From NCBI GenBank assembly GCA_963528875.1, contig CAURWT010000002.1:180001-212000 (forward strand): a DNA stretch of 32,000 nt, read 5' to 3'. A program made the position numbers and the translations under genes. Below are positions 1 through 32,000 of the stretch, one piece after another. This DNA comes from an uncultured Candidatus Saccharimonas sp. Its GTDB lineage: Bacteria > Patescibacteriota > Saccharimonadia > Saccharimonadales > Saccharimonadaceae. Below the pieces are notes generated by a model. The model was not told the origin of the DNA, ran no database searches, and saw only the letters and a list, made by a program, of their open reading frames with translations. The stretch's first letter is position 1. The number at the start of each line of letters is the position of its first letter.

Positions 1-789
1 CTTAGAAATGCTAAAATTGAAAGTTCACAACTTGATGCTGAGCTAATTTTAGCAAACGTTTTAAAAGTTGAACGAACTTTTTTACATGCAAATCCGCAAA
101 AAAAGCTTTCGAAAACTCTGGTTTTTCACGCTAATAACTTTTTAAATAAGCGCCTAAAGAGGATTCCGCTCGCTTATATTTTTCGAGAAAAGGAATTTTT
201 TGGAAGAACTTTTTTCGTGAACGAAAATGTACTAGTTCCTCGCCCAGAAACTGAAACCCTAATTGAAATTACTAAAAAAATTGCCAAAAAAGGTGATAAA
301 ATTTTAGATGTTGGTACAGGTTCTGGAATAATTCCAATCACTCTAAAAGCTGAGCTTGGCGAAAATATTGATTTTTTTGCGAGCGACATTTCACTTCAAG
401 CGCTTTCTGTGGCGAATCTAAACGCTATAAAAATCCTTGAAAGTGAAATTGAGCTTTTCGAAAGTGATCTTTTAAGCCAAATACCGTCAGAAATTCTTTC
501 GAAAATAACAATAATTACAGCAAATTTGCCGTATGTTAATAAAGATTGGATAAATTTCAAAAAGAATAATGAGCTACATTATGAACCACAAATTGCACTT
601 TATGCTCAGAAAAATGGTTTAGAGACAATTTTTAATTTAATTTTTCAAGCTCAAGATTTACCAAAATTGCAAAAAATTATTCTTGAAGCTGACCCTTCTC
701 AATTTGAGGAAATTGAAAATTATGCCAAAAAATGTGGTTTTTCAAAAACTTACTCAGAAAATTACACAATTATTTTCGAAAAAAAATAA
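1..789 (+). CDS. prmC: Release-factor glutamine N5-methyltransferase PrmC/HemK (5' end outside window)
   Basis: Frame 1 is open from nt 1 (LRNAKIESSQLDAELILANVL...RIPLAYIFREKEFFGRTFFVNENVLVPRPETE), so the ORF-track ATG at 217 is internal. SAM motif I is ILDVGTGSGIIP. Catalytic motif IV is present as ANLPYV, a variant of NPPY. Confidence 0.85.
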   Translation, partial: LRNAKIESSQLDAELILANVLKVERTFLHANPQKKLSKTLVFHANNFLNKRLKRIPLAYIFREKEFFGRTFFVNENVLVPRPETETLIEITKKIAKKGDKILDVGTGSGIIPITLKAELGENIDFFASDISLQALSVANLNAIKILESEIELFESDLLSQIPSEILSKITIITANLPYVNKDWINFKKNNELHYEPQIALYAQKNGLETIFNLIFQAQDLPKLQKIILEADPSQFEEIENYAKKCGFSKTYSENYTIIFEKK

Positions 790-849
790 CCCAAATGGAT
801 GTATGACATTCAGCAGTCTAAATAATCTGAGTTCACACATCTTATAAAT

Positions 850-884
850 ACAATAAAGATGACTGCCTTGGTCGTCTTTATTGT
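850..884 (+). terminator. Intrinsic terminator downstream of prmC
   Basis: acaataaagatgac / tgccttg / gtcgtctttattgt. The GC core stem is GATGAC/GTCGTC, with a U:G wobble that is valid only in the plus-strand RNA. It is flanked by an A-rich 5' side and a U-rich 3' side (UUUAUUGU). Confidence 0.6.
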
Positions 885-1139
885 CTGCAAGTGGATTCTA
901 TATAATCTATCTTATCCTTATTTAGAATGTTGTCCGACTTTAATTCTATTGCTAATAGCCATGCTTATTCAAAATATTTTCTAAATACACCACTAATTTC
1001 CTTTCCTTTCAAAGAATATAGGTGAGGTGCATAAGAAAAATAGCCTCTTCATTGTCAATTATTACAAATTGAATCTTTGGGAATTTTGTTTTTTCCTCCT
1101 TATTGTCAAAGCATCTATACTAATAAACGGAACCGTAGT

Positions 1140-1607
1140 TTATATGGTCAAGTACATTTTGTCAATATTACGCTCATAACTAAGAGTAAATATTTCTTTA
1201 TATTCTCTTATATCTTTTTTATGATTGTAGAATTTTCTAATTTCCCTATCAATATGATTGCTTACATACTTTTTCTTGGCCTCATTTCTTAGCATAGGAT
1301 TTATTGCCGTAAAGTTACCCGTTAAGCTCACAAACACCTTCCTTAGTCTATGATATTCGTTTGATAATATAATTATCAACTTCATTAATGTTTTTATAAA
1401 GAATTTAACGCTCTCAGAATGCCCTACGATACTACTTATATACTTAGATAGCTCCTCTATTTTTTCCAATTTATCTCTATTTTCAAACTGGTAAAGAATT
1501 AAAATAGTCGACACCAAAACAAGAAGAACTGAGGATATGGCAGGGTATGTCAACTCTATATCAGGCAATGATTTAAGCATGAAATTATTTACCATATCAT
1601 AAACCAT
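1140..1607 (-). CDS. Hypothetical protein with one N-terminal TM helix
   Basis: 155-aa ORF with a hydrophobic segment (AISSVLLVLVSTILILY) followed by a Lys/Glu-rich soluble part. I recognise no family motif. It lies in a very AT-rich tract. Confidence 0.45.
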   Translation of the reverse strand: MVYDMVNNFMLKSLPDIELTYPAISSVLLVLVSTILILYQFENRDKLEKIEELSKYISSIVGHSESVKFFIKTLMKLIIILSNEYHRLRKVFVSLTGNFTAINPMLRNEAKKKYVSNHIDREIRKFYNHKKDIREYKEIFTLSYERNIDKMYLTI

Positions 1608-7551: not shown

Positions 7552-8994
7552 CTATTCTTTCTCTACTTTTTCAGATTCTTTAGCTTCGTGAGTTTTTGTC
7601 GCTTCAGATTCAACAACATCATTTGCTTTTTTCGTAAATTCAGCAGTTGCTTTTTTCATTTCTTCACGACTTCGGTACCAGTAGGCTACGGCACCAGTAA
7701 TTGCCATAATCGCAATCACCATCATTACAGCCTCAGCAGGACCAGTATGTGGTAGTTCGCTTGGAACTTCAGCACATTTTGGATCATTAGCTGCAAGGTT
7801 TTCAAGACCCGTAATTTTACATTTATCATTACAATTTGGGTCATTCTTCTTTAAGTTTCCTTTTCCAGGAATTTCACAAAATTCTTTGCGTTCTTGTGGT
7901 GTACAATTTTTTTGAACATTCACAACAGCTGTGTTCTCTTTTGAACCATTTTTTGTTGAAACTTGCGCACGATTAACTAATTTATTCAATCCACAAACAA
8001 GTTTATCTCGATCTGCTGTTGCAGTGAACGTTACATAAGCGTTTGAACCGGGAGCATAATTACCGATATTAATTCCAGAAGTTGTGATGTTATCTGAATT
8101 AATTTTTAGACCATTTGGATTTGAACTGTTTTTCAAAACAGTTGAACCTTTTTCATAAGTTAAGTTGTTTGGCAAGAAGTCACGAACCATTACGTTTTCT
8201 TGTGCAACTTCACCATTATTATCATAACCGATTCGATATTCAACTTTTTCGCCAGTTTTTACACTGACATCATTTTTCCACTCAGTTTCACCAATCTTTC
8301 GAACTTGTTTTGTAACTTTAAAGCTTGCTTGTTTTTGAGTTGTAACTTTAACTTTAAACAATACAATTCCAGAATATTGGAAACATCCAGGAATTTTTCC
8401 ATCCATTTGTTCGTAACCAAGTTTTGCGCCAGTGCTATTTACGATACTATCTGGCAAAGCAAAACCATTTGATGGATTTACGTTGTTGTAGTATTTCGCA
8501 GAGCCTGCTACGTAAGAAACTGTAAAGTTTTTACTTGCACTCTTGAATACTACTTGATCCCAGACAGTTGCAGGTTTAGAATTTGAAGCCGAAATTTGAC
8601 CTTGAAGCGTAATTTCTTTTGCCGACTGATTTGGCACACTCGCTTTAGCAGTCACATTTTCAGCAACTAGTTTTAAGTTTGCTGCAGCATTGTTGTGAAC
8701 ATACATTCGAATAAAATATTCACCATCGCTATCAACATCAACTACATCTTTCCATTGATTTGCTGCATCAGTGGTTTTTCTTGCAATAACAAAGTTTCTT
8801 TCATCGCCATAATTTGGGTTATTTGTTATGGCATTGAATGTCACCCTATCTGCAGGTTTTTCGATAGTATAGGTTGCACGACTTGGTCCCCACGCCATTG
8901 CTGCGGTACCACTTAAAACGGTAACCGCAACAACTGCGAAGATTAAACTCAATCGTAAACCAATACTGTTTTTAAAAAACTTTTTGATTTTCAT
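7552..8994 (-). CDS. Secreted surface protein with DUF11-type repeat domain and LPXTG-like C-terminal anchor
   Basis: Signal peptide (LSLIFAVVAVTVLSGTAAMA). Segment FKVTKQVRKIGETEWKNDVSVKTGEKVEYRIGYDNNGEVAQENVMVRDFLPNNLTYEKGS resembles the conserved-repeat (DUF11/TIGR01451) domain. LPHTG is followed by a hydrophobic helix, YWYRSREE, and then an unusual 35-aa charged tail. Confidence 0.8.
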   Translation of the reverse strand: MKIKKFFKNSIGLRLSLIFAVVAVTVLSGTAAMAWGPSRATYTIEKPADRVTFNAITNNPNYGDERNFVIARKTTDAANQWKDVVDVDSDGEYFIRMYVHNNAAANLKLVAENVTAKASVPNQSAKEITLQGQISASNSKPATVWDQVVFKSASKNFTVSYVAGSAKYYNNVNPSNGFALPDSIVNSTGAKLGYEQMDGKIPGCFQYSGIVLFKVKVTTQKQASFKVTKQVRKIGETEWKNDVSVKTGEKVEYRIGYDNNGEVAQENVMVRDFLPNNLTYEKGSTVLKNSSNPNGLKINSDNITTSGINIGNYAPGSNAYVTFTATADRDKLVCGLNKLVNRAQVSTKNGSKENTAVVNVQKNCTPQERKEFCEIPGKGNLKKNDPNCNDKCKITGLENLAANDPKCAEVPSELPHTGPAEAVMMVIAIMAITGAVAYWYRSREEMKKATAEFTKKANDVVESEATKTHEAKESEKVEKE

Positions 8995-9006
8995 TTTTTT
9001 CCTTTT

Positions 9007-11725: not shown

Positions 11726-14623
11726 TTAAGCTTTTTTGAGTGAAATTTTTACTTCTGAACCTTCAACTTTTACAATCTGAGCAAAATCAAGTTCATCTTC
11801 TGAAATTTCAGCCTTTGTGGCCAAAACTTCTTTCGAAATTTCTTGTTCAAATTTCTTGAACGCGTCAAGGACTTCAGCATTTTCAGATGTAAAGTTAAGT
11901 TCAATTCGATCATCAACATTTAGACCAGCTTTCTTGCGTGTGGCCTGAATGTGGCGAATAATTTCACGCATTAAGCCTTCTGCACGGAGTTCAGGAGTTA
12001 ACTCAAAGTCAAATTCAACGCTCTCACTACCAAACTCAACACTTTTAACATTTAATTCTTCCATTAAAATTGGCGCGAAATCAAAAGATTTTGCATTTTG
12101 CGGAACTTTTACACTGGCTAGCGGCTGGCGAATTTTTACGCCATTTTTTGCTCGAAGCGCAAGAGCTTCATTCACATAGCCACGGACTTCGGCCATTTCA
12201 GCAAGTAAGCTCTCATCAATCTCGCCAGCTCCTGGCCAATCTTTCAAATGAACTGAACCATCGCCAATCATTTTGCTCCAAAGTTCTTCCGCCAAGAAAG
12301 GCACGAATGGCGCAAGAATTAACGCAAGATAGCTCAAAACATAGTGGAGCGTTTGATAAGCTTGAAGTTTATCGGCACCGTTTTCGCTCTTCCAGAAACG
12401 ACGTCGTGAACGGCGTACAAACCAGTTTGAAGCGTCATCGAGGAACGGCAAAACACCTTCAAGAGCGCGTGGAATATTATAAACATTCATATTTTCACTA
12501 ATTTCGTTTCGAAGCTCATGAACACGGCTCACAATCCATTTATCAAGCGGATTTTCAAGATCTTTCGAAGGATCTTTGAGTTCGCCGTTAAATTCCCAAC
12601 CGTCAACACTTGCATACATCGTGAAGAAATCATACATATTCCAAATCATCGAAAGTTTGCGTGCAACATCCGAAACATCTTTGTCGTGAAGTGCAAAATC
12701 TTCACCATTCAAAAGTGGGCTCGTTAGCAACAAGAATCGCAAACTGTCGGCTGAATATTGGTCCATTAGTTCGTTAGGATCGGTATAATTACCAAGCGAT
12801 TTACTCATTTTTCGGCCATCATTTCCAGCAACAACACCGGTTGTAATCACATTTTTAAAGGCATTTTTACCGAACAAAGCAGTATTTACCGCATGAACAT
12901 AATAGAACCACGCACGAACCTGACCAATATATTCAACAATAAAATCACCTGGGAAATTCTTTTCGAACTTTTCTTTGTTTTCGAAAGGATAATGGAACTG
13001 CGCAAATGGCATTGAACCACTTTCAAACCAACAGTCAAGCACTTTATCAATTCGAGTGTATTTTTCGCCATCAATTTCGAAAGTAATTTCATCAACCCAA
13101 GGTCGATGGTAATCTTCAAGTTCCACGCCGCTCAATTCTTTAAGCTCGGCATAAGAACCAACCACGCGAATCTTACCGCTTTCAGACTTCCAAACTGGCA
13201 TTGCTGTCGCCCAAAAACGGTCGCGCGACAAATTCCAATCTGGTGCGGCTTCAAGATTTTTTTCGAAACGACCGTGCTTCAAGTGTGCTGGGAACCAGTT
13301 AATATTTTCATTTTGTTCAATCATTAGCTCTTTTTGACCTTGAATATCAAAGAACCAACTTGGGTGTGCTCGATACATCAATCGGTGACCTGTTCGTGGA
13401 TTGTGTGGGTATTCGTGGCGAATGTAATCGATTCTCCAAACTACACCACGTTCTTTCAAGATTTTCGCTAATGGCTTATTAAATTCCCACACATCTTCAC
13501 CAGCAAATTCGCCGTCAATATATTTTCCGTATTCATCTAAAACGTGAAAAACTGGAATTCCATATTTTTTACCAAAGTTAAAGTCTTCTTCGCCATAAGC
13601 TGGTGCCGAGTGGACAATTCCCGTTCCACTTTCAAGAGAAACATAGTCTGCACCCCAAACTTTATAAGCATTCTCTTCACCTTCACCAGAATATTTCGAA
13701 TCTTCAGAAAGTGGTTCGTATCTCAAACCAATCAAATCCACGCCATCAATCAAATTGACAATTTCGAAAGGAATCGGTTGTTTTTTTTCATCAACAAAAA
13801 CTTTTTCGAGCAAATCTTTTGCCAAAATGAAGAATTCATCACCAACTTTTACTTTTGCGTAGGTAATTTCAGGATTCACAAACAAGCCCATATTGGCCGG
13901 CAAAGTCCAAGGAGTCGTTGTCCAAGCGAGCATTGCAGTTTTATCTTTTGAGCCTTCTGCATCTTCGAAATCTTTCAACCAAAATTTTACAAAAACGCTT
14001 GGGTCGGTAACAGTTTTATAGGCGTCGTTATCCATTGTAACTTCACTTTTCGAAAGTGGAGTTGCCCACGCCGTGTCATACATTAGAACGCGTTCACCTT
14101 CGTAAATTTTACCCTTTTCGTAAAGAGTTTTGAATGCCCACCAAACAGACTCCATAAAATCTTTATCCATCGTTTTGTAAGCATTTTTAAATTCAACCCA
14201 GCGGCCAATGCGATCAATCGTATTTTCCCAAAGCGCCGCATTCGAAACCATGCTTTCGCGCGCAGTCGTAATATATTCGGCGAGCGAAATTTTTTCACCA
14301 ACTTCGTGCCGAGAAGTGATACCGAGCTTTTTCTCAACAAAGTTTTCGGCTGGCAAACCGTGCGTATCCCAACCCCAACGGCGTTCAACTCTTTTGCCAA
14401 GCATCGTTTGATAGCGCGGAACAGCATCTTTTACGATTGAGCTAAGGAGTGTCCCGTGGTGTGGCACGCCTGTGATAAATGGAGGGCCATCATAAAACAC
14501 GAAGGTGTTATCTTCGCTACGATTTTCAACTGATTGCTCGAAAGTTTTTTCTGCTTTCCAACGCGCCAAAACATCGGCTTCGTATTCTTTTGCTCGTCTT
14601 CTTGAATTTGCTTGAAATTTCAT
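11726..14623 (-). CDS. ileS: Isoleucine--tRNA ligase, type 2 (eukaryote/archaea-like)
   Basis: 965 aa. Contains YDGPPFITGVPHHGTLL (HIGH region in the type-2 GPPF-TG context), KMSKSLGN, WNLSRDRFWATAMPVW and an editing-domain insertion. AGGAGG Shine-Dalgarno sequence upstream. Confidence 0.92.
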   Translation of the reverse strand: MKFQANSRRRAKEYEADVLARWKAEKTFEQSVENRSEDNTFVFYDGPPFITGVPHHGTLLSSIVKDAVPRYQTMLGKRVERRWGWDTHGLPAENFVEKKLGITSRHEVGEKISLAEYITTARESMVSNAALWENTIDRIGRWVEFKNAYKTMDKDFMESVWWAFKTLYEKGKIYEGERVLMYDTAWATPLSKSEVTMDNDAYKTVTDPSVFVKFWLKDFEDAEGSKDKTAMLAWTTTPWTLPANMGLFVNPEITYAKVKVGDEFFILAKDLLEKVFVDEKKQPIPFEIVNLIDGVDLIGLRYEPLSEDSKYSGEGEENAYKVWGADYVSLESGTGIVHSAPAYGEEDFNFGKKYGIPVFHVLDEYGKYIDGEFAGEDVWEFNKPLAKILKERGVVWRIDYIRHEYPHNPRTGHRLMYRAHPSWFFDIQGQKELMIEQNENINWFPAHLKHGRFEKNLEAAPDWNLSRDRFWATAMPVWKSESGKIRVVGSYAELKELSGVELEDYHRPWVDEITFEIDGEKYTRIDKVLDCWFESGSMPFAQFHYPFENKEKFEKNFPGDFIVEYIGQVRAWFYYVHAVNTALFGKNAFKNVITTGVVAGNDGRKMSKSLGNYTDPNELMDQYSADSLRFLLLTSPLLNGEDFALHDKDVSDVARKLSMIWNMYDFFTMYASVDGWEFNGELKDPSKDLENPLDKWIVSRVHELRNEISENMNVYNIPRALEGVLPFLDDASNWFVRRSRRRFWKSENGADKLQAYQTLHYVLSYLALILAPFVPFLAEELWSKMIGDGSVHLKDWPGAGEIDESLLAEMAEVRGYVNEALALRAKNGVKIRQPLASVKVPQNAKSFDFAPILMEELNVKSVEFGSESVEFDFELTPELRAEGLMREIIRHIQATRKKAGLNVDDRIELNFTSENAEVLDAFKKFEQEISKEVLATKAEISEDELDFAQIVKVEGSEVKISLKKA

Positions 14624-14631: not shown

Positions 14632-15561
14632 CTATGAATTTACTTTATAGCTTAGTTTCATCATTTCTTTTGCAGTTTCTAATTGGTCGATACTATCTAT
14701 TTTTATTTGATAACAGCCAGTAGCCCAATGTCCTTTTTTCGAAACATCTTCAATATCGAAATATATTTTTGGATCAAAATCAGAACGTTCAATATTAAGA
14801 TTTAAATATAGAGAGTTTTTCTGAACAATAATACTAAAAATATTTTTCTTTCTAACTTTAAAAGCCAAATACGTCTTCTTCACATCTGGTTGAATTTCTG
14901 GACTAATATTCTCAGCAAAATCTTTCAATTCCCAATAAAACTCCTGAATAGAATCCGAGCCTCTAGACACTAGTTCGTCTTCACTATAGTTGACAATTTC
15001 CTTGAGCACAGTTTTCTCGTCATTACTATTTTTTGCTATATTCGCTTGGCTTTTTTGACTTCTACCCTTTTTCATACCCTTTTGTAAGTACTCCACAATA
15101 TCGCCATATTTCCTAAATTCATATAGTTCAACTGGGAAATTCTCGGTAGTATATTCGCTTGCTCTAAGCTGGTATTCAGTGAATTTTGGAGAAATAAGAA
15201 TTACGCGCGACTGAGACCAATCGATTTCTGGTATTCCTCCTCCGTTTTTCTCAATAAATTTTAAAATAAAAGCTTCTTTATTTTTCAACATCAACGATAA
15301 GTAAGCCAGACCTTGATCTGCAACAGAATCACTTTTAATTTTTTTATATTCAATGATTACAAAACTATTACTCTCATCGTCAAATGCCAAAGTATCTATC
15401 CGTAAATTGTCAACAGCAAACTCTGTTTCTATAAATCTTAACCCAAAAACCTCTTCAAGATTGTCTTCAGTCATTTTTTGAATATCTTTCTCAAGATATT
15501 TCTGAGAAACGTTCTCTTGTTTGATAGCTGTTAATTTTTCATTGTTCAATCTATAAAGCAT
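14632..15561 (-). CDS. NucS/DUF91-like PD-(D/E)XK nuclease-fold protein with a C-terminal DUF5655-like domain
   Basis: RIDTLAFDDESNSFVIIEYKK fits the D...(D/E)XK motif of NucS-type nucleases. I place the start at ATG 15561 (MLYRLNN), 6 nt after a strong GGAGAGGAG Shine-Dalgarno sequence; the ORF-track start at 15591 would translate that sequence. Confidence 0.65.
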   Translation of the reverse strand: MLYRLNNEKLTAIKQENVSQKYLEKDIQKMTEDNLEEVFGLRFIETEFAVDNLRIDTLAFDDESNSFVIIEYKKIKSDSVADQGLAYLSLMLKNKEAFILKFIEKNGGGIPEIDWSQSRVILISPKFTEYQLRASEYTTENFPVELYEFRKYGDIVEYLQKGMKKGRSQKSQANIAKNSNDEKTVLKEIVNYSEDELVSRGSDSIQEFYWELKDFAENISPEIQPDVKKTYLAFKVRKKNIFSIIVQKNSLYLNLNIERSDFDPKIYFDIEDVSKKGHWATGCYQIKIDSIDQLETAKEMMKLSYKVNS

Positions 15562-15577
15562 GTTTTTCTCCTCTCCT

Positions 15578-15780
15578 AAATTAAAAATCACCTCTTTTAG
15601 ACTCGAGAACCAAGCAAGCTCGGCGATACCATCTCGATTCCAAAAGAAGTGATTCTTTTAGCCCTTAATTTTAGCTTTCACGGAGCTTTCCCGCCCAGTT
15701 CTAATCAGTTTTCGAAACCTTTCTTCTGGGAGCTTCGCGGTTGATAGCCGCTCATTCATCAAAATAAAACGCTTTTATGA
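15578..15780 (-). ncRNA. Candidate structured RNA of about 200 nt, either a leader/attenuator or a stand-alone sRNA
   Basis: GC-richer than the flanking DNA, with no ORF on either strand. It starts about 7 nt after the promoter at 15786-15814. It ends in a long hairpin (15589-15651; 13 bp, a mismatch, 6 bp, then an apical 5-bp stem with a CUUG loop), followed directly by AUUUUUAAUUU. An alternative 9-bp pairing with the terminator 5' arm exists at 15721-15729. Confidence 0.4.
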
Positions 15781-16689: not shown

Positions 16690-17318
16690 GTTATAGTTCC
16701 CTAACAATTTAGAATATGATATAATAATGCCTTCGAAAATGTTTATCGAGAAAGAGTTATAGTTCCCTAACAATTTAGAATATGATATAATAATGTATAA
16801 GAAACATGGTGTTATGTGTTAGTTATAGTTCCCTAACAATTTAGAATATGATATAATTTTAATACCAGTCTTAATTCCCATATCTTGTTATAGTTCCCTA
16901 ACAATTTAGAATATGATATAATTATATAAATTACCTAAATGCGGACTTGTTGGTTATAGTTCCCTAACAATTTAGAATATGATATAATGAATTAGCCGTG
17001 AGATTATTTTGTTCAATTGTTATAGTTCCCTAACAATTTAGAATATGATATAATTGAATAGCGGCGAAAATAAACGTTATTGAGGTTATAGTTCCCTAAC
17101 AATTTAGAATATGATATAATCACGTTCATAACCATTGAATAGAGTAAATGGTTATAGTTCCCTAACAATTTAGAATATGATATAATGCAAATATTATGGA
17201 AAACTCAAGCAAAAAAGTTATAGTTCCCTAACAATTTAGAATATGATATAATAAAATTTTCTTGAATTTTGATCGCATACAGGTTATAGTTCCCTAACAA
17301 TTTAGAATATGATATAAT
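16690..17318 (+). CRISPR. CRISPR array: 10 identical 36-nt repeats and 9 spacers (eight of 30 nt, one of 29 nt)
   Basis: The repeat GTTATAGTTCCCTAACAATTTAGAATATGATATAAT starts at 16690, 16756, 16822, 16887, 16953, 17019, 17085, 17151, 17217 and 17283. The plus strand is assigned as the crRNA sense strand because the tracrRNA anti-repeat is on the minus strand. Confidence 0.97.
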
Positions 17319-17358: not shown

Positions 17359-17682
17359 TTAAAAAAATGAAAGTTGATCATTCGAAACACGCCTTTCTTG
17401 CGCAGTTTTTTTACCAGCAATCACATACATATTCGTAAATTGATGCTCTGTTAAATAAATTAGCCGAATCGAACCAACATCTGGCGCATTTCTCTTAACA
17501 CGATTCATATGTTTTTCGGCGGCATCCCTATTCGGGCAAAGCCTCGTGTAAACACTATACTGCAACATATTAAAACCATCTTTTAGCAAGAAGTTTCGAA
17601 AACGTGTTGCTATTCTTCTTTCTTTTTTACTACCCGTAGGTAGATCAAAAAATACCGCTACTCTCATAAATTTATATGCCAT
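17359..17682 (-). CDS. cas2: CRISPR-associated endoribonuclease Cas2
   Basis: 107 aa. MRVAVFFDLPTGSKKERRIATRFRNFLLKDGFNMLQYSVYTR shows the typical Cas2 beta1-Asp and ferredoxin-fold pattern. It follows cas1. Confidence 0.9.
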   Translation of the reverse strand: MAYKFMRVAVFFDLPTGSKKERRIATRFRNFLLKDGFNMLQYSVYTRLCPNRDAAEKHMNRVKRNAPDVGSIRLIYLTEHQFTNMYVIAGKKTAQERRVSNDQLSFF

Positions 17683-17717
17683 CTTTCCTCTTTTTGTTTT
17701 TATTTTTGTTTTATTTT

Positions 17718-18602
17718 TTATATTTTTGGCAACTCTAGACTACTTGAATCTTTCTTTAAAATACAATCAACAAAACTTTCAACCGTAATCTCAATTGCAT
17801 TTTTAATTGCGAATTTTTTACCCTTAATCTTAACCCGAAATTCTAAAACCTCAAGCAAAATCCGGCGTTCTTCTTTCGAAAGAGCCGAATCTTCTTTTTC
17901 GAACCCACTCAAACCAAATTTTTTAAGCACGAACAGGTCGATTAGAGGGCGATACGCTTCAATCAAGTCATCTGCTAAATTAAAGCTATTTAGCTCATTA
18001 TGATGAAAAATACCTTGCGAAACTACCAGCCCACGAGCCGCCAAATGCCGTGCCAACCCTGTGCGAACAAGCGCATAGCTGTAATTTAATGCCGAATTAT
18101 ACCACATTGGCCGACGACGGGTTGCGTCATCAAGAAGCTGTGAAAAGTAGTCGCGTGCGGCTAAAGACTCACGATTAGCGGAATCTCCAGATTTAACTTC
18201 ACTTGCACATTTTCGAAGATATTCATCATTTAAGCCAAAATATTTTAAAACATCAGCCTGATTAGAAATTTTTCGAATAATATTATTCTGCCAAATCTGT
18301 TTTTTGAGTGGAATCTTCATCTCAATTTGCTGGCGAGATACTTTAGCCTGCCGCGAATGTTGAGAATATGGTAAAACTATGGCCGTAGGAAGATGCTTCT
18401 GATCACAAATCACAACGCTCACTGCTCGAGAAGAGAGCTCATTTAATAGATTTGTGGTTAAGTTTAAACCATAATTATCAATTATTAACGAGTCGATATC
18501 TTCAATCGGAATCGAAACGTCTTCTTCTTGCGAAATTAAGAGCCGGTTATTTTTAACGCTTAGTCGAGCGGGATTTTCGATAGAAATAATGCGCCACGCC
18601 AT
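17718..18602 (-). CDS. cas1: CRISPR-associated integrase Cas1 (type II)
   Basis: MAWRIISIENPARLSVKNNRLLISQ is a type II Cas1 N-terminus. I place the start at ATG 18602, which forms a TAATG overlap with the cas9 stop; the ORF track instead uses a GTG three codons upstream (18611). Confidence 0.92.
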   Translation of the reverse strand: MAWRIISIENPARLSVKNNRLLISQEEDVSIPIEDIDSLIIDNYGLNLTTNLLNELSSRAVSVVICDQKHLPTAIVLPYSQHSRQAKVSRQQIEMKIPLKKQIWQNNIIRKISNQADVLKYFGLNDEYLRKCASEVKSGDSANRESLAARDYFSQLLDDATRRRPMWYNSALNYSYALVRTGLARHLAARGLVVSQGIFHHNELNSFNLADDLIEAYRPLIDLFVLKKFGLSGFEKEDSALSKEERRILLEVLEFRVKIKGKKFAIKNAIEITVESFVDCILKKDSSSLELPKI

Positions 18603-21600
18603 TAAATCCACCTATAATTATCGCCCAGAACGGAGATATCGTAGCGTTCAATTGAAGTTATTGTACCACCAGAAATTCTATCAGTATTCTTCTTATCTGC
18701 TTTATCGTGACCTATTAAAGATATTCTACCACTATCTATATCATAGCCAACATAATAACCCTCAACAATCTTATTTCCTGCATAAATCCGCACATAATCA
18801 TTTGGATACAACGAAAATTGCTTGACAAATCCATTTTCTTCAGTCGCAAAAATCTTACCTTTTTCATCGCGAATTTTATTAAAATCGGCTTTTTCTGCCA
18901 CACTTCGCCCATTTGGCGTTGGTAAAATTTCAACTTTTTTAGCATTCAACAGATGCGCATAAATTGGCGAAAAATAGTATTCAAATTCGCCCTTGTAATT
19001 TTTGCGCTTAAACACATCCAACCGAATCGTATCACCGTTATTAACAAAAGCTTTACCTTTGTTAATTAAGAAACCGCTTTTTGAATTTTGCGTATCATAA
19101 ACCTTAATTGAGCGAACAATATTACCGCGACCACCATTTTTTGTTGGTTTATAAACTGGGTTGCTTGGGTCGCCAAAAGCTTTTTCTGGTTTATTACCAA
19201 ACTTATTTAATCGTGCTTTTAAGATCTCATATAAGGCTGGGTCCGTTTCACTAACTGGTGATTTTTTAAGTATTTCTAATTTTACTTTTGTTAATCGGAT
19301 TCGTTGTTTCCGTGCTATAGCCGGCTTTCCTTCCGAATCTACGTAACCTTCGACAATTTTCGGTGAACGGATCGTTTCTTCATTAATATTACCCTTTCCC
19401 GAGCGTTTTGGCATTCTTGAAACGAAAATAGGCGTTGTTCTATTTCGAAAATCTTCATCATAATTCTCAAGACCAATTAGTTCGTTGCGAAGCTCCATTG
19501 GCGATTCATAATGAGCAGTCCTTTTTCGAACTTCTTTTCCAAAATCTTTCCACGGTTCAATATCCTCAAAGGTCTGTTCAAAATCCGCTCGACTAAAAAT
19601 TTCACCCGTTATTTTATCAATAACTTCATCTTCCGCCGAATATTTAAAAAGTTCAAAATATTTGTTCAGGCGTGAAATTTTTTGAATAACACTTTGGTCG
19701 ATCGCAGCAATTATACAGGCATCCGTAGCGTGATGAAGGTTGTTTTCTTCGCGATCCTTTGAGCCCACACGCCAAATACGGCGCAAATAAGAAGTTATTG
19801 AACCATTCGGCACAATCACTCGCTGAGCTGGATTTTCATTCTCAATTTTAGCAAATTTCAAATTCTTACGAAGATATTGGCTTAAGAACTTTGAAATATA
19901 TCGCGTATCATTTAACGCACGGCTATTCCAATCTTCTTTTGGTGGAACTTTCGCAAGCAATCGTTCTTTCTTTCGAAAAGGAAGGTTCATTGAATTTATG
20001 CGTGCCTCAAAATCAGCCCATCGGCTTTCATTAGCACCCCAAGCTTCGAAAGGTGCTAAATTACCTTTTTGGCGGTTTTCTTCAGTGAAAACTAAAACTT
20101 TATTTATTAAGCTGTCATTTCCGCAGCGAGAGAATGGAATGATGTGATCAATTTCGGCATAATGCTCATTGGAAAATAGATTTTCTAAAACAAGACTTTT
20201 TCCAGAATAAACGCATTTTCCGTTTTGTTGTTCATAAAGTTTAAATTTGGTAATTTGTAGGCCGGTTGGCGAAGGAACATTAAACTCGTTTTGAAGTCGC
20301 TCTTTAATACTTTCGTTGTAACTGGCATTTGCTTTTTGAGTTTTTTTAATTTTTTCACGTTCTTTAAAATTTTTAGCTAAATCACCCGCAGCTTCAATTT
20401 TAATTTGATATGGTGCGCCATATTCTCTGATAATGGCATTTACAACTTTAACAGTCTGCGAAACCGCCCGTTTAACAACAGGATTTGTAATTTGAGCTGA
20501 TTCTTCTTTCGAAAGGGGCGGAAGCTTGTTTTTATCCCCGGAAAGCTGCTGTTTTGTATCGTAGCCTGCATTTTCTGACGCATTACGATATGTATCACCT
20601 TTCAATAAAAATGGCAAGATTTTTCTAAGCGCCTTAAATGACAAATGGCCAAAACCGCTAACATTAATCATCATCAATGTTTCAACTGCATCTTTACTTA
20701 AATTAAGCTTCGAAATCTCTTTTCGCAAATTTTCATCATCTTTATTACATGAAAGAATTTCACCAAGTTCATCTAGCATTCTATAATTATTGTCACAAAC
20801 TTTTTGCCAATCTTCTGGAGTGTTTGAAAGAACAGCTTTAACCTTATGATAAAAAGAAAGTTCACCGAATTTATTTTCTTCACCGTTATTTTTGCTATCT
20901 TTTTTAATCTCGCCACGAATCATATTTGCTGGAAAGCTAAAGTTTTCATCTTTTTTATAACCTAAAACTTCACGGATGTGTTGATATTTCAGCGCTTTAA
21001 TATCCTTAGCTTTTTCAATAACTTTTGAAATTTCTTCTTCCGTTAGACCGCGCTCCTTGTTGTTTATTACAACCCTTAAGTGCGCTAAGTTTTCTGCCAA
21101 ACGAAACATCTCGAAACTATAACTCGCTTTTGGCGCACGAAATTCAGATTTCTCGAGACTACACTTTCCGCGCATTTTCATAATTAATTCACTAGTTATA
21201 AATGGGCGTTGCGAAAAAATTCCGTTAAAATTACCTTCCTTTTCGTTTCCAAAAAGGAGAAAATTAATCTTTTCATCTGAAAGCTTCAAGCCAAATTCTT
21301 TTTGAATTTTTAAAATAAGCTTCGCTTCATCTTCGAAATTCGCCCGCACGAAAGAATTGCTGTAATCTTCAGCTTTATTCCTTTTGTGAGCTATAAATTT
21401 TTCATTCGAATTTAACGCACTAGCAACAGTTTTATACTCTTTGAGTAACTTCTCGTTTTTTGAAATTGCTGAAAGAACTTTCGAATTTTCTTTATCGTTT
21501 TCTTCGGCAGATTTTCGATTACTTTTATATCCACGATGTTTAGCAATGTGATATAAACCAACAAAGAGTTCCTCGTTCGAGATCTTCTCATTCAACGCCT

Positions 21601-21907
21601 TTTCTCGAATTTTATATGGATCAAGTTTATTTCCTGGCTTTAAAAGCTCTTCAATTTGTTCTTTAGCTAATAGATTATTATCTCTGAAGAATCTTTTAAT
21701 AAAATTTAACCGCTGACGGCGACGCTTCAATCTTCTTCTTGTTGAGCGAGCTGTTCGCCGAGCTTCAGACAGACTTTTACCATCTTTCGGGTTTTCTGGT
21801 TTTTCGAAAATCCGAACGCCAACTTTTTCGATTCTTTTGTTATCTTCATCGATTATAGCCCAACCAATTGAGGTCGTACCTATATCTAAACCTATTGAGT
21901 ACTTCAT
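18602..21907 (-). CDS. cas9: Cas9, compact type II-C-like (1101 aa)
   Basis: RuvC-I MKYSIGLDIGTTSIGWAII; Arg-rich bridge helix RRTARSTRRRLKRRRQRL; RuvC-II IKIEAAGDL; HNH EIDHIIPFSRCGNDSLINKVLVFTEENRQKGN; RuvC-III NLHHATDACIIAA. No csn2 or cas4 is present in the locus. Confidence 0.96.
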   Translation of the reverse strand: MKYSIGLDIGTTSIGWAIIDEDNKRIEKVGVRIFEKPENPKDGKSLSEARRTARSTRRRLKRRRQRLNFIKRFFRDNNLLAKEQIEELLKPGNKLDPYKIREKALNEKISNEELFVGLYHIAKHRGYKSNRKSAEENDKENSKVLSAISKNEKLLKEYKTVASALNSNEKFIAHKRNKAEDYSNSFVRANFEDEAKLILKIQKEFGLKLSDEKINFLLFGNEKEGNFNGIFSQRPFITSELIMKMRGKCSLEKSEFRAPKASYSFEMFRLAENLAHLRVVINNKERGLTEEEISKVIEKAKDIKALKYQHIREVLGYKKDENFSFPANMIRGEIKKDSKNNGEENKFGELSFYHKVKAVLSNTPEDWQKVCDNNYRMLDELGEILSCNKDDENLRKEISKLNLSKDAVETLMMINVSGFGHLSFKALRKILPFLLKGDTYRNASENAGYDTKQQLSGDKNKLPPLSKEESAQITNPVVKRAVSQTVKVVNAIIREYGAPYQIKIEAAGDLAKNFKEREKIKKTQKANASYNESIKERLQNEFNVPSPTGLQITKFKLYEQQNGKCVYSGKSLVLENLFSNEHYAEIDHIIPFSRCGNDSLINKVLVFTEENRQKGNLAPFEAWGANESRWADFEARINSMNLPFRKKERLLAKVPPKEDWNSRALNDTRYISKFLSQYLRKNLKFAKIENENPAQRVIVPNGSITSYLRRIWRVGSKDREENNLHHATDACIIAAIDQSVIQKISRLNKYFELFKYSAEDEVIDKITGEIFSRADFEQTFEDIEPWKDFGKEVRKRTAHYESPMELRNELIGLENYDEDFRNRTTPIFVSRMPKRSGKGNINEETIRSPKIVEGYVDSEGKPAIARKQRIRLTKVKLEILKKSPVSETDPALYEILKARLNKFGNKPEKAFGDPSNPVYKPTKNGGRGNIVRSIKVYDTQNSKSGFLINKGKAFVNNGDTIRLDVFKRKNYKGEFEYYFSPIYAHLLNAKKVEILPTPNGRSVAEKADFNKIRDEKGKIFATEENGFVKQFSLYPNDYVRIYAGNKIVEGYYVGYDIDSGRISLIGHDKADKKNTDRISGGTITSIERYDISVLGDNYRWI

Positions 21908-22117: not shown

Positions 22118-22146
22118 AGTATACATCTAAATAAAATTATTGTCAA
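22118..22146 (-). promoter_or_regulatory. Predicted tracrRNA promoter
   Basis: Minus strand: TTGACA (22146-22141), 17 nt, TATACT (22123-22118), about 27 nt upstream of the anti-repeat. Confidence 0.6.
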
Positions 22147-22170
22147 TACAAAAAACACGCTTTTTTTAGC

Positions 22171-22864: not shown

Positions 22865-24087
22865 TAATCTTCCTTTTTATTACGTTTTCGGCGTCGTAAA
22901 AATGCAGGAATATCGCTCTCATCCTTTTCTTCTTCATCTTGAGCCCAAATATTTTTAGTTTCGATATCACTAGCAAAATCTTCGGCTGAAGTTTTTTCTT
23001 CATTATTTAATTCCATATCAATTGCGTTCGAAATTGTATGGTTAATTTCTTGCGATTCAGTATGATCGTTTTCAAGATTAAAAGTTTTCGAAACAGCACT
23101 TTCGAGCGAATTTATCACAGGCTCATTATAATCACGGTCAAAACCAGTTGCAACAACTGTAATAATCAATTCATCTTCAAGCTCAGGTTTAAGTGTTGCA
23201 CCAAAAATGATATTTGCATCTGGAGCAACAGCACCAGTAATAATCTCAGCTGCCTCTTGAATCTCGCTCATACTCATATCATAACCACCAGCAACGTTGA
23301 ATAGAACACCACGCGCGCCATCAATAGAAACCTCAATCATTGGGCTTTCGATAGCTTGTTCGGCAGCCTTTTGAGCACGATTATCACCACTCGCACGGCC
23401 AATTCCCATCAAAGCAGAACCAGCATTACTCATAATTGACTTAACATCCGCAAAGTCAAGGTTGATTAAACCATGCTCAGTAATAAGTTCAGAAATGCCC
23501 TGAACACCTTGCCGAAGAACATCGTCGGCAATTTTAAAAGTTTCAAGAAGTGGCAAATTCCTATCAACAGTTTGAAGAAGACGATCATTTGGGATTGTTA
23601 TTAAAGTATCAACCGCATCGGCAAGCTTTTCAATTGCCCAATCAGCATTAGTTTTGCGTTTTGCGCCTTCGAAAGTAAATGGACGTGTTGCAACACCGAT
23701 AACTAAAATTCCCATTTCACGAGCAATTTCAGCCACAACGTGACCAGCGCCAGAACCAGTTCCACCACCAGCACCAATGGCGATAAACACCATATCGGCA
23801 CCATCAAGAGCCTCGCGAATTTCTTCTCGAGATTCAAGAGCGGCGCTCTCACCAACAATAGGATCAGCACCAGCGCCTAAACCATTTGTAGTTTCACGAC
23901 CAAGGTGGATTTTCTTGTCGGCCTTTGATTTATATAAAGCTTGAGCATCAGTGTTCATCGCAATAAACTCGATGTTACTCAAACCAACATCTTTCATTCG
24001 ATTAACGGCGCTTCCACCGGCACCACCGATACCTACAACTTTAATTTTAGCAAAAGTTTGAACTTCATTTGGCATAATTTCTGGCAT
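22864..24087 (-). CDS. ftsZ: Cell division GTPase FtsZ
   Basis: [13 protein letters not shown], the tubulin signature [18 protein letters not shown], and the C-terminal FtsA-binding peptide [10 protein letters not shown]. Confidence 0.96.
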
Positions 24088-28931: not shown

Positions 28932-29981
28932 TTATTTTAATTTTGCTTGCTCTCGATAAAAATCAATCCAAATTTTTAACAGCCTGTCTTCTGAATAATA
29001 CTCTGAAATTTCTTTCGACTTCGCTTTAAATTCTTTTAATTTTTCTGGATTTTTCGAAATATCTTTAATTACTTCATTCATCTCTTCGAAATCTTTGCCA
29101 CAAAGATATTTTCCTTCAAGAATATTTTTATACAAATCCAAATCTCGTAGCATTATTGGCGCCCCGCAACTAGCCGCTTCCAAAATAGACATTGGGAAAA
29201 GCTCCGCATAACTTGGCAGAAGAAACAAATCACAACTTGCATAAAACTTTCGAATTTCTTCGCGCGGAACAATTCCTAAAAATTTCAAATTTTTTGGTGG
29301 ATTTTCAACTATTTTTTTGTAACGCTCATAGCCGCTGGTAATTTTTCCGAACGAAAAACCGCCAGCCCAAACAAATTTAACATCGGGATTATTTTCTGCT
29401 AATTTTACGAAATCATCAATGCCTTTCCGCTGCTGAACTTGACCAACTCCAAAAACCACAATATCATTTTTTTTCCAGCCTTGTATTTTTCGAAATTCCT
29501 CTCGCTCTTCCTCATTCAAAGGTGACCATTTGTCTTTTGCAACGAAATTCGGAATATAAGTTATTTTTTCTCGGTCGATACCAATTTTAACTAATTCTTC
29601 TTTAAAATCTGGATTAACCACCACTAAATGATCCATTTTATCATAAAATTTGATCAGATATTTTTTTACAATTTTTTCAGCAATTGCTGGCATATCTAAA
29701 CTACCATCAAGAGTGTCAGGAATTAAGTGAACATAGCCAATTCTGCGGCCGGTATATTTTTTAAACTGTGCAGCTAAATAAAAATGCGGGTCAATAGTGT
29801 GAAAATGCGTAATATCTGGATTTTTCGCACGAAGTGTTTTAGTAATTTTTAACTCGCTCTTTGCTCGATTTTCAAGAAGATTCATTAGCTCAACATAAGC
29901 ACCACCAACACCTTGGCCAGCAACCTTATCCGCAGAACTCATCATATTCACATGGATTTTATTCATAGGCCAATTATACAC
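28932..29981 (-). CDS. GT4-family (GT-B fold) glycosyltransferase
   Basis: N-terminal GQGVGGAY; C-terminal FLLPSYAELFPMSILEAASCGAPIM (E-x7-E region). The start could instead be MNKIH (29966), which would avoid the 8-nt overlap with recJ. Confidence 0.85.
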   Translation of the reverse strand: MYNWPMNKIHVNMMSSADKVAGQGVGGAYVELMNLLENRAKSELKITKTLRAKNPDITHFHTIDPHFYLAAQFKKYTGRRIGYVHLIPDTLDGSLDMPAIAEKIVKKYLIKFYDKMDHLVVVNPDFKEELVKIGIDREKITYIPNFVAKDKWSPLNEEEREEFRKIQGWKKNDIVVFGVGQVQQRKGIDDFVKLAENNPDVKFVWAGGFSFGKITSGYERYKKIVENPPKNLKFLGIVPREEIRKFYASCDLFLLPSYAELFPMSILEAASCGAPIMLRDLDLYKNILEGKYLCGKDFEEMNEVIKDISKNPEKLKEFKAKSKEISEYYSEDRLLKIWIDFYREQAKLK

Positions 29982-31608
29982 GCTTTCTCTCTAAATGTAA
30001 AATCTGCCCTTCAACACTTTTTTGCCCTTGCCATTCGTTCAGGCCAAGTGAAAAAACCACGTCAATTTCTTCGCCGATTTCCGCAAAAAATTCTTCTGGC
30101 GCATTAAATTTTAACATTTTAATTTCATTCTCGCCATCTGTTAAAGTTAGCTTTAAATGCTGTTTTTTATCGCCCATTTCTTGCCGAGCTATAACTCGTG
30201 CGTTTTTAATTTCGAAAGTTGGCTCTTCATTTCCCTTTCCAAAAGGCTCAAGCGCTGTAATCTTTTCGAAAAGATCTAACGAAATTAGTGAAAAGTCTTC
30301 AAGCTGAATATCCACTTTTGGCAAAAGATATTTGAGTTGATCTTTAAGATTGAGCGAATCATAAAAATCATTCACGCTTTTTCGAAAATCATTAATTTTC
30401 GAGGTCGGCAGAGTCACACCGGCTGCGGCATCATGACCACCGCCCTTAATAATGATTTTGCGCGCTTTATCAACGGCTTGACTCGCCGAGAACCCACCGA
30501 AGCTTCGCGCCGATCCTTTTGCAATCTCACCCTCAATTGAAATTACAAAAACTGGTTTTTTAAAGCGTTCAAGCAAACCACTTGCCACAATCCCAATAAT
30601 TCCATCGTTAAAACTTTCATCCGCTAAAACTAAAACTTTATCATTTTCGAAATCCTTAGCTTTTTGGATTGCAATTTCGAGCGCTTCATGTTGAATTTTA
30701 CGGCGTTTTTTATTTAAATCATCAAGATTTTTAGCTTTTTCGAAAGCCACGAAAGCATCGTTTTCAAGCATTAAATCCAGAGCCTTTTCAGCCGTTTCAA
30801 GCCGGCCAGCCGAATTGATTCGCGGGCCAATAATAAAACCAAGTGTCGAACTTTTTGGCTCTTTCACGCCAGCTAGTGCAAGTATCGATTTCAAACCAGC
30901 TCGGCGAGTTTTCGAAAGGACTTTTAGCCCCCAAAAAATATTTTGGCGATTTTCGATAGTTTGCTCCATAATATCACAAACCGTACCAAGCGCTACCATA
31001 TCAAGAAACCATTTTTCTTGGCCAAGAGGCAAACCATCAAGTTTGGTTTGTAAAGCTTGAACCAATTTAAAAGCCACACCAACACCTGCGAATTTCTCAG
31101 CCTGCGGATATTTGTTTTCTTTTCGGCGCGGATTCACAACCGCCACCGCATTCGGCTGCACTTCAGCGATATTATGATGATCAGTGACAATTGTATCAAT
31201 CCCAAATCCTTTTGCAAAATCAATTTCAGCATGGTTTAAACTTCCGCAGTCAACTGTTAAAATTAGATTTGTTCCGCGTTCTGCTAAAATTTTAACGCCG
31301 CGTTCGTTCATTCCGTAGCCATCTTTAAAACGATCTGGTAAAAAATAATCTACATTCTTAAAGCCAAAACTTTCGAAAGCAGTTAAAATTACAGTTGAAG
31401 CCGAAACACCATCAACATCATAGTCACCATATACGGTAATTTTTTCTTGATTTTTATGAGCAACAAGCAATCGCTCGACTGCTTTTTCCATATCGGGCAA
31501 TAAAAAAGGATCGTGCTGGTTATCATAATCTGGGTTCAGAAAAGCCTCACGATTCTCTTTCGAAATTCCACGATTCTCTAAAATTTGTTCAAAAATTTGC
31601 TCCACCAC
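29974..31608 (-). CDS. recJ: Single-stranded-DNA-specific exonuclease RecJ
   Basis: DHH motifs YGDYDVDGVS, TVDCG and IVTDHH. DHHA1 motif GGGHDAAAG. Confidence 0.92.
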   Translation of the reverse strand: MVEQIFEQILENRGISKENREAFLNPDYDNQHDPFLLPDMEKAVERLLVAHKNQEKITVYGDYDVDGVSASTVILTAFESFGFKNVDYFLPDRFKDGYGMNERGVKILAERGTNLILTVDCGSLNHAEIDFAKGFGIDTIVTDHHNIAEVQPNAVAVVNPRRKENKYPQAEKFAGVGVAFKLVQALQTKLDGLPLGQEKWFLDMVALGTVCDIMEQTIENRQNIFWGLKVLSKTRRAGLKSILALAGVKEPKSSTLGFIIGPRINSAGRLETAEKALDLMLENDAFVAFEKAKNLDDLNKKRRKIQHEALEIAIQKAKDFENDKVLVLADESFNDGIIGIVASGLLERFKKPVFVISIEGEIAKGSARSFGGFSASQAVDKARKIIIKGGGHDAAAGVTLPTSKINDFRKSVNDFYDSLNLKDQLKYLLPKVDIQLEDFSLISLDLFEKITALEPFGKGNEEPTFEIKNARVIARQEMGDKKQHLKLTLTDGENEIKMLKFNAPEEFFAEIGEEIDVVFSLGLNEWQGQKSVEGQILHLERKRV

Positions 31609-31621
31609 TTTTTTAAAAAAC

Positions 31622-31942
31622 CTACCTTTTTACAGATTTTTCAATATAATTTCTAGAACGCGAAACACTATTTTGCTCACGAACTTTCACCACAATTGAT
31701 TGAAGTTCAGAAAAAAATAAAAAATTCGTATTTGCAAAATAAGTGTATGTATTCTTTTTCTTTTCTCTATACAAAAAACCAACTTTTTCAAGCTTAGCGA
31801 GCTCACGCTGAATATTTCCTGGGTCTTCTTTTAAAAGTTTCGCAAGACCGCGAGAATGCATTTTAATTACAGGATACGTCACGAAAAACACAACAATTTT
31901 TCGCTTTACTCGTGATGTAATAAAAATGTCTAAATCTACCAT
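31622..31942 (-). CDS. Winged-helix (ArsR/MarR-like) transcriptional regulator
   Basis: MHSRGLAKLLKEDPGNIQRELAKLEKVGFLYREKK is an HTH-plus-wing pattern. I take the start at MVDLDIF (31942); a longer ORF runs to 31993. Confidence 0.6.
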   Translation of the reverse strand: MVDLDIFITSRVKRKIVVFFVTYPVIKMHSRGLAKLLKEDPGNIQRELAKLEKVGFLYREKKKNTYTYFANTNFLFFSELQSIVVKVREQNSVSRSRNYIEKSVKR

Positions 31943-32000
31943 ATACTCGCCTTTTCGTATTTCTATTTTACAAAATTTTCGATATTTTCGCAAGGCTTAT

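Follow-up and report, generated by a model that had tools for sequence, protein, structure and literature searches.

TTCGAA as a lineage-specific highly iterated palindrome in a small clade of Saccharimonas-like bacteria

The DNA uptake sequences (DUS) of Neisseria and the uptake signal sequences (USS) of the Pasteurellaceae are non-palindromic words of 9–12 bp with extended flanks. The effect of the E. coli Dcm/Vsr system is modest and goes along with depletion of the T-containing neighbour word, and the targets of restriction enzymes are normally avoided. Cyanobacteria have been known to carry highly iterated palindromes (HIPs) for thirty years, and what these do is still a matter of debate (PMC5861425 among other sources). 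Orphan methyltransferases act on the core of HIP1 (GCGATCGC); HIP1 has lately been connected with transformation that depends on methylation, and a function as uptake signal has been suggested. Elhai used the pattern of one-off variants in 2015 to tie HIP1 to its methyltransferase core, in a model in which HIP1 saturates at approximately one copy per kb (PMC4390886), and Xu et al. described more than one copy per gene in some species as well as a HIP1 periodicity of 10–90 kb (PMC5861425). In this study we analyzed the palindrome TTCGAA in a 32,000-bp stretch of Candidatus Saccharimonas DNA with 35.7% GC, which will be referred to as the window and is identical to positions 331,134–363,133 of a 374,812-bp ENA scaffold. 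Its FtsZ assigns the window to a Candidatus Saccharimonas metagenome-assembled genome. Relatives of Candidatus Saccharimonas are ultra-small episymbiotic bacteria, and no report of TTCGAA abundance in Saccharibacteria or Patescibacteria was found in the literature. TTCGAA with its preferred T/A flank (TTTCGAAA) is a lineage-specific highly iterated palindrome that most resembles cyanobacterial HIP1. An active force at the level of DNA, which overrides codon choice and some amino-acid choice, keeps this double-stranded DNA word at approximately 3 copies per kb across the long-resident DNA of a small Saccharimonas-like clade.

Exact counting yielded 96 copies of TTCGAA and 46 of the octamer TTTCGAAA in the window, compared to 10.6 and 1.09 expected from base composition, i.e., a 9.1-fold excess for the hexamer and a 42-fold excess for the octamer. 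The first-pass annotation, made from the letters alone, had arrived at roughly 90–95 hexamers and about 45 octamers with approximately 10 and 1 predicted, in good agreement with these values. TTCGAA is the commonest of the 64 palindromic hexamers in the window, and its z-score ranks first among all 4,096 hexamers under Markov models of orders 0–2 and second under order 3. The expected number rises from 24.1 under order 1 to 41.1, 51.5 and finally 75.9 under orders 2, 3 and 4, the last being the maximal order for a hexamer (octamer at maximal order: 46.75). The resulting ratio near 1 might be taken as a refutation of the enrichment. This objection was rejected, since the sub-words are nested in the motif and consist mostly of its copies (96 of 128 TTCGA and 96 of 194 TCGA), which produces the ratio artificially; with the proper variance the hexamer still reaches z = 6.2. 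As to CpG contexts, 96 of the 1,252 CpGs in the window stand within TTCGAA, the runner-up NNCGNN context accounts for 18, and TCGA outside the motif occurs at expectation (98 versus 102).

The 96 sites are spread without strand over positions 1–32000 at 3.0 per kb, with 91 in predicted genes and 5 in non-coding DNA, and the excess carries on into the 17 kb flanking the window. In the resulting 49 kb of contiguous DNA, the spacing of sites is exponential and Poisson-like (Kolmogorov–Smirnov p = 0.47), with six gaps of more than 1 kb compared to 7.7 expected. All motif-free gaps named in the first-pass annotation exist (775 to 2097, 8706 to 9725, 15711 to 16732 and 21803 to 22460), although a further one, 18272 to 19444, had been missed. 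Since the spacing is Poisson-like, the gaps carry no signal, and their interpretation as islands of accessory DNA within the window was rejected, the cas operon being at normal density. The proposed coincidence of gaps with accessory DNA is thus not significant in the window, whereas the mobile restriction-modification (R-M) islands of related genomes, described below, are strong cold spots.

To separate the word from the proteins, synonymous codons were shuffled within the genes of the window. The 91 genic copies compare with a mean of 31.0 in 1000 shuffles (sd 4.7, maximum 48), and the 42 genic octamers with 7.5. All three codon phases contribute, with 30 sites read as TTC-GAA, 22 as xTT-CGA-Axx and 39 as xxT-TCG-AAx, compared to 13.6, 6.7 and 10.7 expected, an excess of 2.2- to 3.6-fold. 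Expressed per available position, TTCGAA is used at 30 of 53 Phe-Glu positions (11.2 expected from codon usage), at 39 of 106 [xxT]-Ser-[Lys/Asn] positions (10.5 expected) and at 22 of 52 [xTT]-Arg-[Axx] positions (6.7 expected). Non-coding DNA is enriched as well: in the 49 kb, 9 non-coding sites were found compared to 1.9 expected (4.8-fold), next to 134 coding sites compared to 14.3. The first-pass annotation had named codon-shuffled or Markov nulls giving a ratio near 1, and confinement to the window, to one frame or to one dipeptide, as outcomes that would speak against the enrichment. The ratio was not near 1, and the excess is limited in none of these ways.

A cause at the level of protein or translation, such as a favoured dipeptide, codon pair or RNA motif, would agree with 91 of the 96 copies being genic and with a coding density twice the non-coding density in the 49 kb. 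However, the three phases encode unrelated peptides (F-E, x-S-K/N and [FLIV]-R-x) and all are enriched, the flanks are symmetric on the duplex, the non-coding excess has no place in such an explanation, and synonymous shuffling, which keeps proteins and codon usage, yields only one third of the sites. We therefore give this cause hardly any credence; as a codon or dipeptide effect it is refuted by the three-phase enrichment and the shuffle.

Individual sites illustrate the phases, and the examples at 23668, 23087, 23027 and 19444 translate as the first-pass annotation had stated. The ftsZ site at 23668..23673 (minus strand, phase 0) reads TTC-GAA for Phe-Glu; as this residue pair is conserved in outgroups, only synonymous change was needed there. 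At the ftsZ site 23027..23032 (minus strand, xxT-TCG-AAx, x-Ser-Lys/Asn), the residues differ from the outgroup majority, and the site is absent in the related locus L002. The cas9 site at 19444..19449 (minus strand) is read as xTT-CGA-Axx and encodes Phe-Arg-Asn. One of the nine non-coding copies in the 49 kb is a full TTTCGAAA at 15711..15716, located between the PDC-S18 gene and the tracrRNA/CRISPR region (no strand). A copy in a CRISPR spacer is also present as had been claimed, but at 16732..16737 (no strand) and not at 16730–16735, a shift of 2 bp; the spacer (approximately 16726–16755) is next to the final repeat where the array has its lowest coordinates, and this is the only copy in 270 nt of spacers.

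The flanks of the hexamer show a two-fold symmetric preference, with T at −1 in 68 of 96 sites (71%) and A at +1 in 66 of 96 (69%). The two preferences are independent, and they are similar in the clade loci L002 and L279. The octamer is accordingly the hexamer plus two independent flank preferences, and no flank information was detected beyond one base on each side. The one-off variants of the octamer have observed/expected ratios of 8.0 and 9.3 at positions 1 and 8 and of only 1.8–3.3 at positions 2–7.

In order to determine how far the excess extends, 80 FtsZ loci from Saccharibacteria and other species of the candidate phyla radiation (CPR) were compared. The excess was found in only two of them, L001, which is 94% identical to the window at the nucleotide level and carries 3.0 TTCGAA per kb, and L002, with an FtsZ 82% identical, 42% GC and 4.0 per kb; the 71 other FtsZ loci of at least 8 kb have a median of 0.24 and a maximum of 0.78 per kb. 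A third related species, represented by L153–155 (79–87% identity), has 2.1–2.3 per kb, so that the four motif-rich lineages span 2.1–4.0 sites per kb, whereas a sister group from the same sample series (L150 and L156–158) has 0.19–0.28. As a second line of evidence, an unlinked housekeeping region encoding G6PD, HIT, RlmH, an ABC transporter, PNPase and ValRS carries 63–68 copies in 20.9 kb compared to 17.1 ± 3.8 in dinucleotide shuffles, with an unchanged flank preference. This region was assigned to the clade by its tetranucleotide signature with motif-related tetramers masked (r = 0.90–0.95 versus an outgroup median of 0.65). Housekeeping genes at both loci have 3–4 sites per kb. When the motif-rich clade DNA is pooled over both unlinked regions and no fewer than four lineages, it contains 424 sites in 137.6 kb (3.08 per kb, 9.5 times composition), compared to 368 sites in 1.28 Mb (0.29 per kb, 1.07 times composition) in other Saccharibacteria. 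Among palindromic hexamers over all loci, TTCGAA in the clade has z-scores of 8–15, and the next best value is 6.9.

Several outgroup loci (L004, L033, L050, L052, L072, L079 and L080) have 0–2 TTCGAA where composition predicts 4–7. This weakly suggests that TTCGAA-specific R-M systems circulate in the phylum, no single locus being significant. Pattern scans of viral and metagenome collections for clustered motifs yielded mostly local repeat arrays, and also the clade contig L194 and four phage loci. These phage loci, L126 and L103 (IMGVR_UViG_3300044959_000303), L124 (IMGVR_UViG_3300044959_000237) and L146 (IMGVR_UViG_3300020567_000331), carry 6–9 TTCGAA and 20–24 TCGA per kb; TA is depleted in them, TAA and TAG are rare, and there are long antisense open reading frames (ORFs). 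They encode tail-fibre and homing/HNH endonuclease genes, three of them come from contigs of 107–111 kb, and their oligonucleotide signature is unlike that of the Saccharimonas clade (r = 0.24–0.55). They seem to represent a distinct and still stronger TCGA/TTCGAA enrichment in phages.

The turnover of sites was followed by comparing the window with its relatives. Of 58 sites compared between the window and L001 (94.3% identity), 49 are kept, a higher share than among all hexamers (72%) or CpG hexamers of the same composition (66%). With hexamers of the same gene and the same codon phase as controls, 41 of 48 sites are retained in L001 (34.3 expected, P = 0.018), 22 of 37 in L153 (13.6 expected, P = 0.002) and 23 of 43 in L002 (11.7 expected), a count reached in 0 of 20,000 simulations. 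The clearest retention is found in ileS (11726..14623, minus strand), where 11 of 12 sites are common to L002 at 40% four-fold divergence. In recJ (29974..31608, minus strand), all 8 sites are common to L002 at 55% four-fold divergence, and most lie on residues that differ from the outgroup. Despite retention above controls, about half of the sites are lineage-specific: 19 of 44 window sites are common to L002, 21 occur only on the window/L001 branch and 23 only in L002. Genes at saturated divergence, e.g., ftsA with 6–7 sites per species, hold similar numbers of sites at different positions with the density staying near 3 per kb, which argues that the force is active in every lineage.

The proteins themselves have been altered to carry the word. 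Residues at motif codons match outgroup orthologues at a frequency of 0.418 compared to 0.552 at random positions of the same genes (P = 0.0006), and typical replacements are Ala to Ser, Lys to Arg, Tyr or Leu to Phe, and Asp or Lys to Glu. Together with the use of three phases, the enrichment of non-coding DNA and the symmetric flanks, this bears out the earlier proposal that the process acts on the DNA word and not on the proteins.

At 12 of 15 positions, the site differences between the window and L001 are single CpG transitions to TTTGAA or TTCAAA. CpG is in general the most variable dinucleotide between the two (22.9% differ, compared to 5.7% of bases overall in 16.9 kb aligned); the same alignment contains 812 transitions and 151 transversions. 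Polarised with an outgroup, 3 gains and 4 losses were counted. These data bring in a functionless, context-specific mutation or repair bias, either T:G to C:G correction in TT_GAA of the very short patch (VSP) type or Elhai's methylation-biased mismatch-repair ratchet, by which the word would build up until gain and CpG decay balance. The single CpG transitions and the balance of gains and losses agree with such a bias, as does the arrival of foreign DNA without the word. The Phe-Glu dicodons do so as well, the excess of TTC-GAA (30 versus 9.4 expected) being mirrored by a deficit of TTT-GAA (12 versus approximately 27–31) while GAG dicodons are at expectation, and sporadic alternate HIPs may, according to Elhai, be epiphenomena of this kind (PMC4390886). 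Nevertheless, none of the 58 sites shows a change at its outer T or A, where approximately 6.8 changes were expected and where a bias directed at CpG would offer no protection, and a single-step bias does not account for the many sites that needed several substitutions and replacements. In the serine frame T-TCA-AA is even enriched, and a Pfam search of the 49 kb found no Vsr homologue. Against outgroups, TTTGAA and TTCAAA show no overall depletion, which argues against a simple VSP-type conversion sink, and the sink was rejected on this ground. Taken together, we regard a functionless bias as an improbable source of the excess.

The retention of sites and their even, Poisson-like density, together with the symmetry of the word, would also fit a binding site of a nucleoid-associated or chromosome-organising protein, which might act as a dimer on a T-tract/CpG/A-tract hinge with the density selected for compaction or domain structure. 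Xu et al. in 2018 read HIP1 in this way from its conservation and periodicity (PMC5861425). The sites in L002 are locally clustered, with 22 neighbour pairs closer than 30 bp compared to 9.3 expected (P = 3e-4), often 7–21 bp apart (e.g., L002 596–617, 842–884, 7368–7389 and 21095–21115), which could reflect cooperative binding; no such clustering was found in the window genome, L001 or L153. Proteins of this kind usually tolerate degenerate sites, whereas here only the exact hexamer is enriched and the inner variants are weak, and the DNA examined yielded no candidate protein. A nucleoid-protein site thus appears to us a poor prospect. L002 also differs in other palindromes, GATC being six-fold depleted (12 versus approximately 70–77 expected; mildly so in the window genome, 89 versus 136–158) and GAATTC three-fold below its maximal-order expectation.

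Recently acquired DNA behaves differently from housekeeping genes. A variable defence island and hot spot of gene swapping occupies the interval from the nrdR-adjacent 86-aa gene to ileS (window 14632–21907; L001 12017–12131; L002 12352–14864; L153 10001–12357; L150 10001–12507). In L002, L153–155 and the motif-poor L150 and L156–158, it contains a Type II R-M pair of an EcoRI-family methyltransferase and a DUF262-HNH nuclease. This pair is cold for the motif, with 2 sites compared to 11.0 expected in L002 (P = 0.0012) and 0 compared to 6.0 in L153 (P = 0.0024). The methyltransferase was therefore rejected as writer of the motif; moreover, the module is absent at this locus in two motif-rich lineages and present in four motif-poor genomes (methyltransferase 73–95% identical). 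No clear avoidance of GAATTC, AATT or RAATTY accompanies the module. The EcoRI-family methyltransferases of L002 and L150 are 95% identical, their hosts only approximately 75% at ftsZ. At the second locus, an AlwI-family R-M system with two D12 (Dam-like) methylases has 0 sites compared to 13.6 expected (P = 1e-6), a GC content of 27–31% in its R-M genes and a tetranucleotide correlation with the host of approximately 0. As foreign DNA without sites, it was likewise dismissed as driver of the motif. The AlwI-family nuclease and both D12 methylases lie in a serine-recombinase island (L279–L281, 293–6979), and the recombinase genes beside them have normal motif density with 5 sites in 1.6 kb.

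In the window, the island contains a PDC-S18/DUF5655 gene, a tracrRNA-like anti-repeat, a CRISPR array and cas2-cas1-cas9; in L001 only PDC-S18 is present. The type II cas2-cas1-cas9 operon (17359..21907, minus strand), which is absent from L001 and L002, carries 16 sites compared to 13.3 expected, and its full density indicates long residence in motif-bearing lineages. The first gene of the island, the PDC-S18/DUF5655 defence candidate (14632..15591, minus strand), has 1 site compared to 2.9 expected, which is not significant; a weak NucS-like match of the DUF5655 protein is better explained by the PADLOC candidate PDC-S18. The motif hence works as a residence clock that distinguishes long-resident DNA from freshly acquired islands. 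The CRISPR array (16690–17319) consists of ten 36-bp repeats (ATTATATCATATTCTAAATTGTTAGGGAACTATAAC) and nine 30-nt spacers. The anti-repeat, which contains tgtcatattctaaattattaaggga, lies at approximately 15990–16045 on the minus strand, some 650 bp from the array, with two small ORFs between them (16064–16294 and 16278–16664). Four of the spacers were searched against IMG/VR for a phage of the host and gave no match.

The cold islands bear on a further explanation, namely a DNA-uptake or recombination signal, in which the competence machinery or a recombination protein would prefer TTTCGAAA DNA, and uptake bias with homologous recombination would spread the word. Saccharibacteria are naturally competent (PMC10633639), and recent studies relate HIP1 to the efficiency of transformation and suggest it as an uptake sequence. 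A density of approximately 1–3 per kb, the use of all frames, replacements at tolerant positions and the absence from recent islands match DUS and USS, and the strain-variable cas operon at full density would be expected if it moved only among motif-bearing lineages. Compared with L002 and L153, the window genes have diverged in a strongly mosaic way: IleRS is 95% identical at the protein level with a four-fold divergence of 0.40, FtsZ 82% with 0.62 and FtsA 53% with 0.66, most genes other than ileS having a four-fold divergence of 0.46–0.75 and one small gene (n = 33 sites) 0.39. This may reflect recombination between species and is compatible with gene flow, but it could equally reflect differing constraint. 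Known uptake sequences, on the other hand, are longer and lack the palindrome, and a 6–8 bp word discriminates only approximately 10-fold from other Saccharibacteria (3.1 versus 0.29 per kb). Nor are site pairs arranged as terminator-like inverted repeats, a feature not applicable to a palindrome. By analogy with the known uptake systems, an uptake signal is conceivable but in our view unlikely.

Our own proposal, put forward tentatively and with somewhat less than even confidence, is that TTCGAA is recognised by a clade-specific symmetric DNA enzyme, most plausibly a methyltransferase that would mark self DNA. A resident protein would read the 6-bp core symmetrically as a dimer, as the flank preferences and the one-off variants suggest. 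A methyltransferase is the most plausible reader, as TTCGAA belongs to the classical Type II specificities and has precedent as an N6-methyladenine (m6A) motif, TTCGA*A having been reported as methylated in an environmental metagenome-assembled genome. New sites would arise by ordinary point substitutions, either synonymous or as tolerated replacements, with the turnover between close strains almost entirely at CpG. Existing sites would outlast neutral sequence through selection on the marked site, or through repair or gene conversion biased to the marked word, and foreign DNA would enter without the word and gain it only after long residence. The likely use would be the marking of self DNA for repair, recombination or transformation, as has been proposed for HIP1.

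Several observations weigh against this proposal. The search for a reader, be it a TTCGAA-specific methyltransferase, a nuclease like Vsr or another protein, gave no result in the approximately 6% of one genome that it covered, the 49 kb encoding only PrmC and Ung. The three DNA methyltransferases found in clade genomes all reside in cold, mobile R-M islands, and one of the modules is shared with four motif-poor genomes. Moreover, TTTGAA and TTCAAA have observed/expected ratios of 1.90 and 1.55 in the window compared to 2.01 and 1.46 in outgroups and are thus not depleted, and CpGs within the motif are less variable between the window and L001 than other CpGs (15.5% versus 23.6% differing). 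As motif CpGs are not more mutable than others, there is no signature of 5-methylcytosine deamination, which was rejected on this basis; m6A or N4-methylcytosine would leave none. Annotated regions of clade DNA gave no Pfam match to Vsr or to a 5-methylcytosine methyltransferase. Two neighbouring genes were discarded as candidates: the methyltransferase-like ORF 217–789 (plus strand) is the C-terminal part of the 277-aa PrmC, a release-factor glutamine methyltransferase and not a DNA methylase, and a nearby gene of the UDG family is an ordinary Ung. The gene for PrmC lies at the start of the window (1–789, plus strand) and adjoins RF-1.

A further reading can be formulated, which we consider a long shot. 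Here TTTCGAAA would be a self-DNA tag, probably methylated, by which a clade-specific reader or writer protein tells own and kin DNA from scavenged host DNA. Kin DNA would thereby be steered into recombination or transformation and spared degradation, in an episymbiont living on imported host nucleic acids. If true, this would represent a second, independently evolved system of the HIP or uptake type.

TTCGAA demonstrates a force at the DNA level powerful enough to replace residues of essential proteins, and as a residence clock it sets fresh islands apart from DNA of long residence, to which a strain-variable CRISPR-Cas operon belongs. With a different word in a very different host than HIP1, it provides a simpler system for studying highly iterated palindromes. 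The contrast between motif-rich lineages and their motif-poor sisters (0.2–0.3 per kb in the same sample series) is sharp even though they exchange R-M modules. As the clade is young and shares its habitat with motif-poor sisters, a comparison of gene presence could pinpoint the responsible gene and the function of HIPs.

Compared with known systems, TTCGAA shares its 6-bp palindrome with a Type II restriction site (BstBI/AsuII specificity), but in contrast to restriction-site avoidance it is enriched in the clade. This opposite direction implies protection by an orphan or always-on methylase, or the lack of a cognate nuclease. With Dcm/Vsr of E. coli, whose target CCWGG is over-represented through T:G to C:G correction, it has in common that turnover is mainly between C and T at the central CpG; it differs in its approximately nine-fold excess and in neighbour words that are not depleted overall. 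As with DUS and USS, the word occurs at least about once per kb, in genes in all frames and at tolerant positions, is common to related species, is present in housekeeping genes and is depleted in recent DNA (0–2 sites in R-M islands compared to 6–14 expected), but as a palindrome of 6–8 bp it has low discriminating power. The closest match is HIP1 and the alternate HIPs. HIP1 proper is GCGATCGC in cyanobacteria, whereas the present word is AT-rich and contains CpG, its host is a CPR/Patescibacteria episymbiont (longest clade contig seen 375 kb), and no cognate methyltransferase was found for it in the 49 kb around the window and the clade loci. Its origin is recent, at the genus level, sister lineages poor in the motif occur in the same samples, and its density of 3 per kb also sets it apart. 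In relation to the at least 10-fold abundance that characterises HIPs, TTCGAA stands at 9.1-fold in the window and 9.5-fold in 137.6 kb from four lineages and two loci, values we accepted as sufficient. Like HIP1 and the alternate HIPs, it is an octameric palindrome with a 6-bp core and an order-of-magnitude excess, occupies all frames and non-coding DNA, has sites conserved beyond neutral expectation and one-off variants at the outer positions, and, like the alternate HIPs, it is sporadic and restricted to a lineage.

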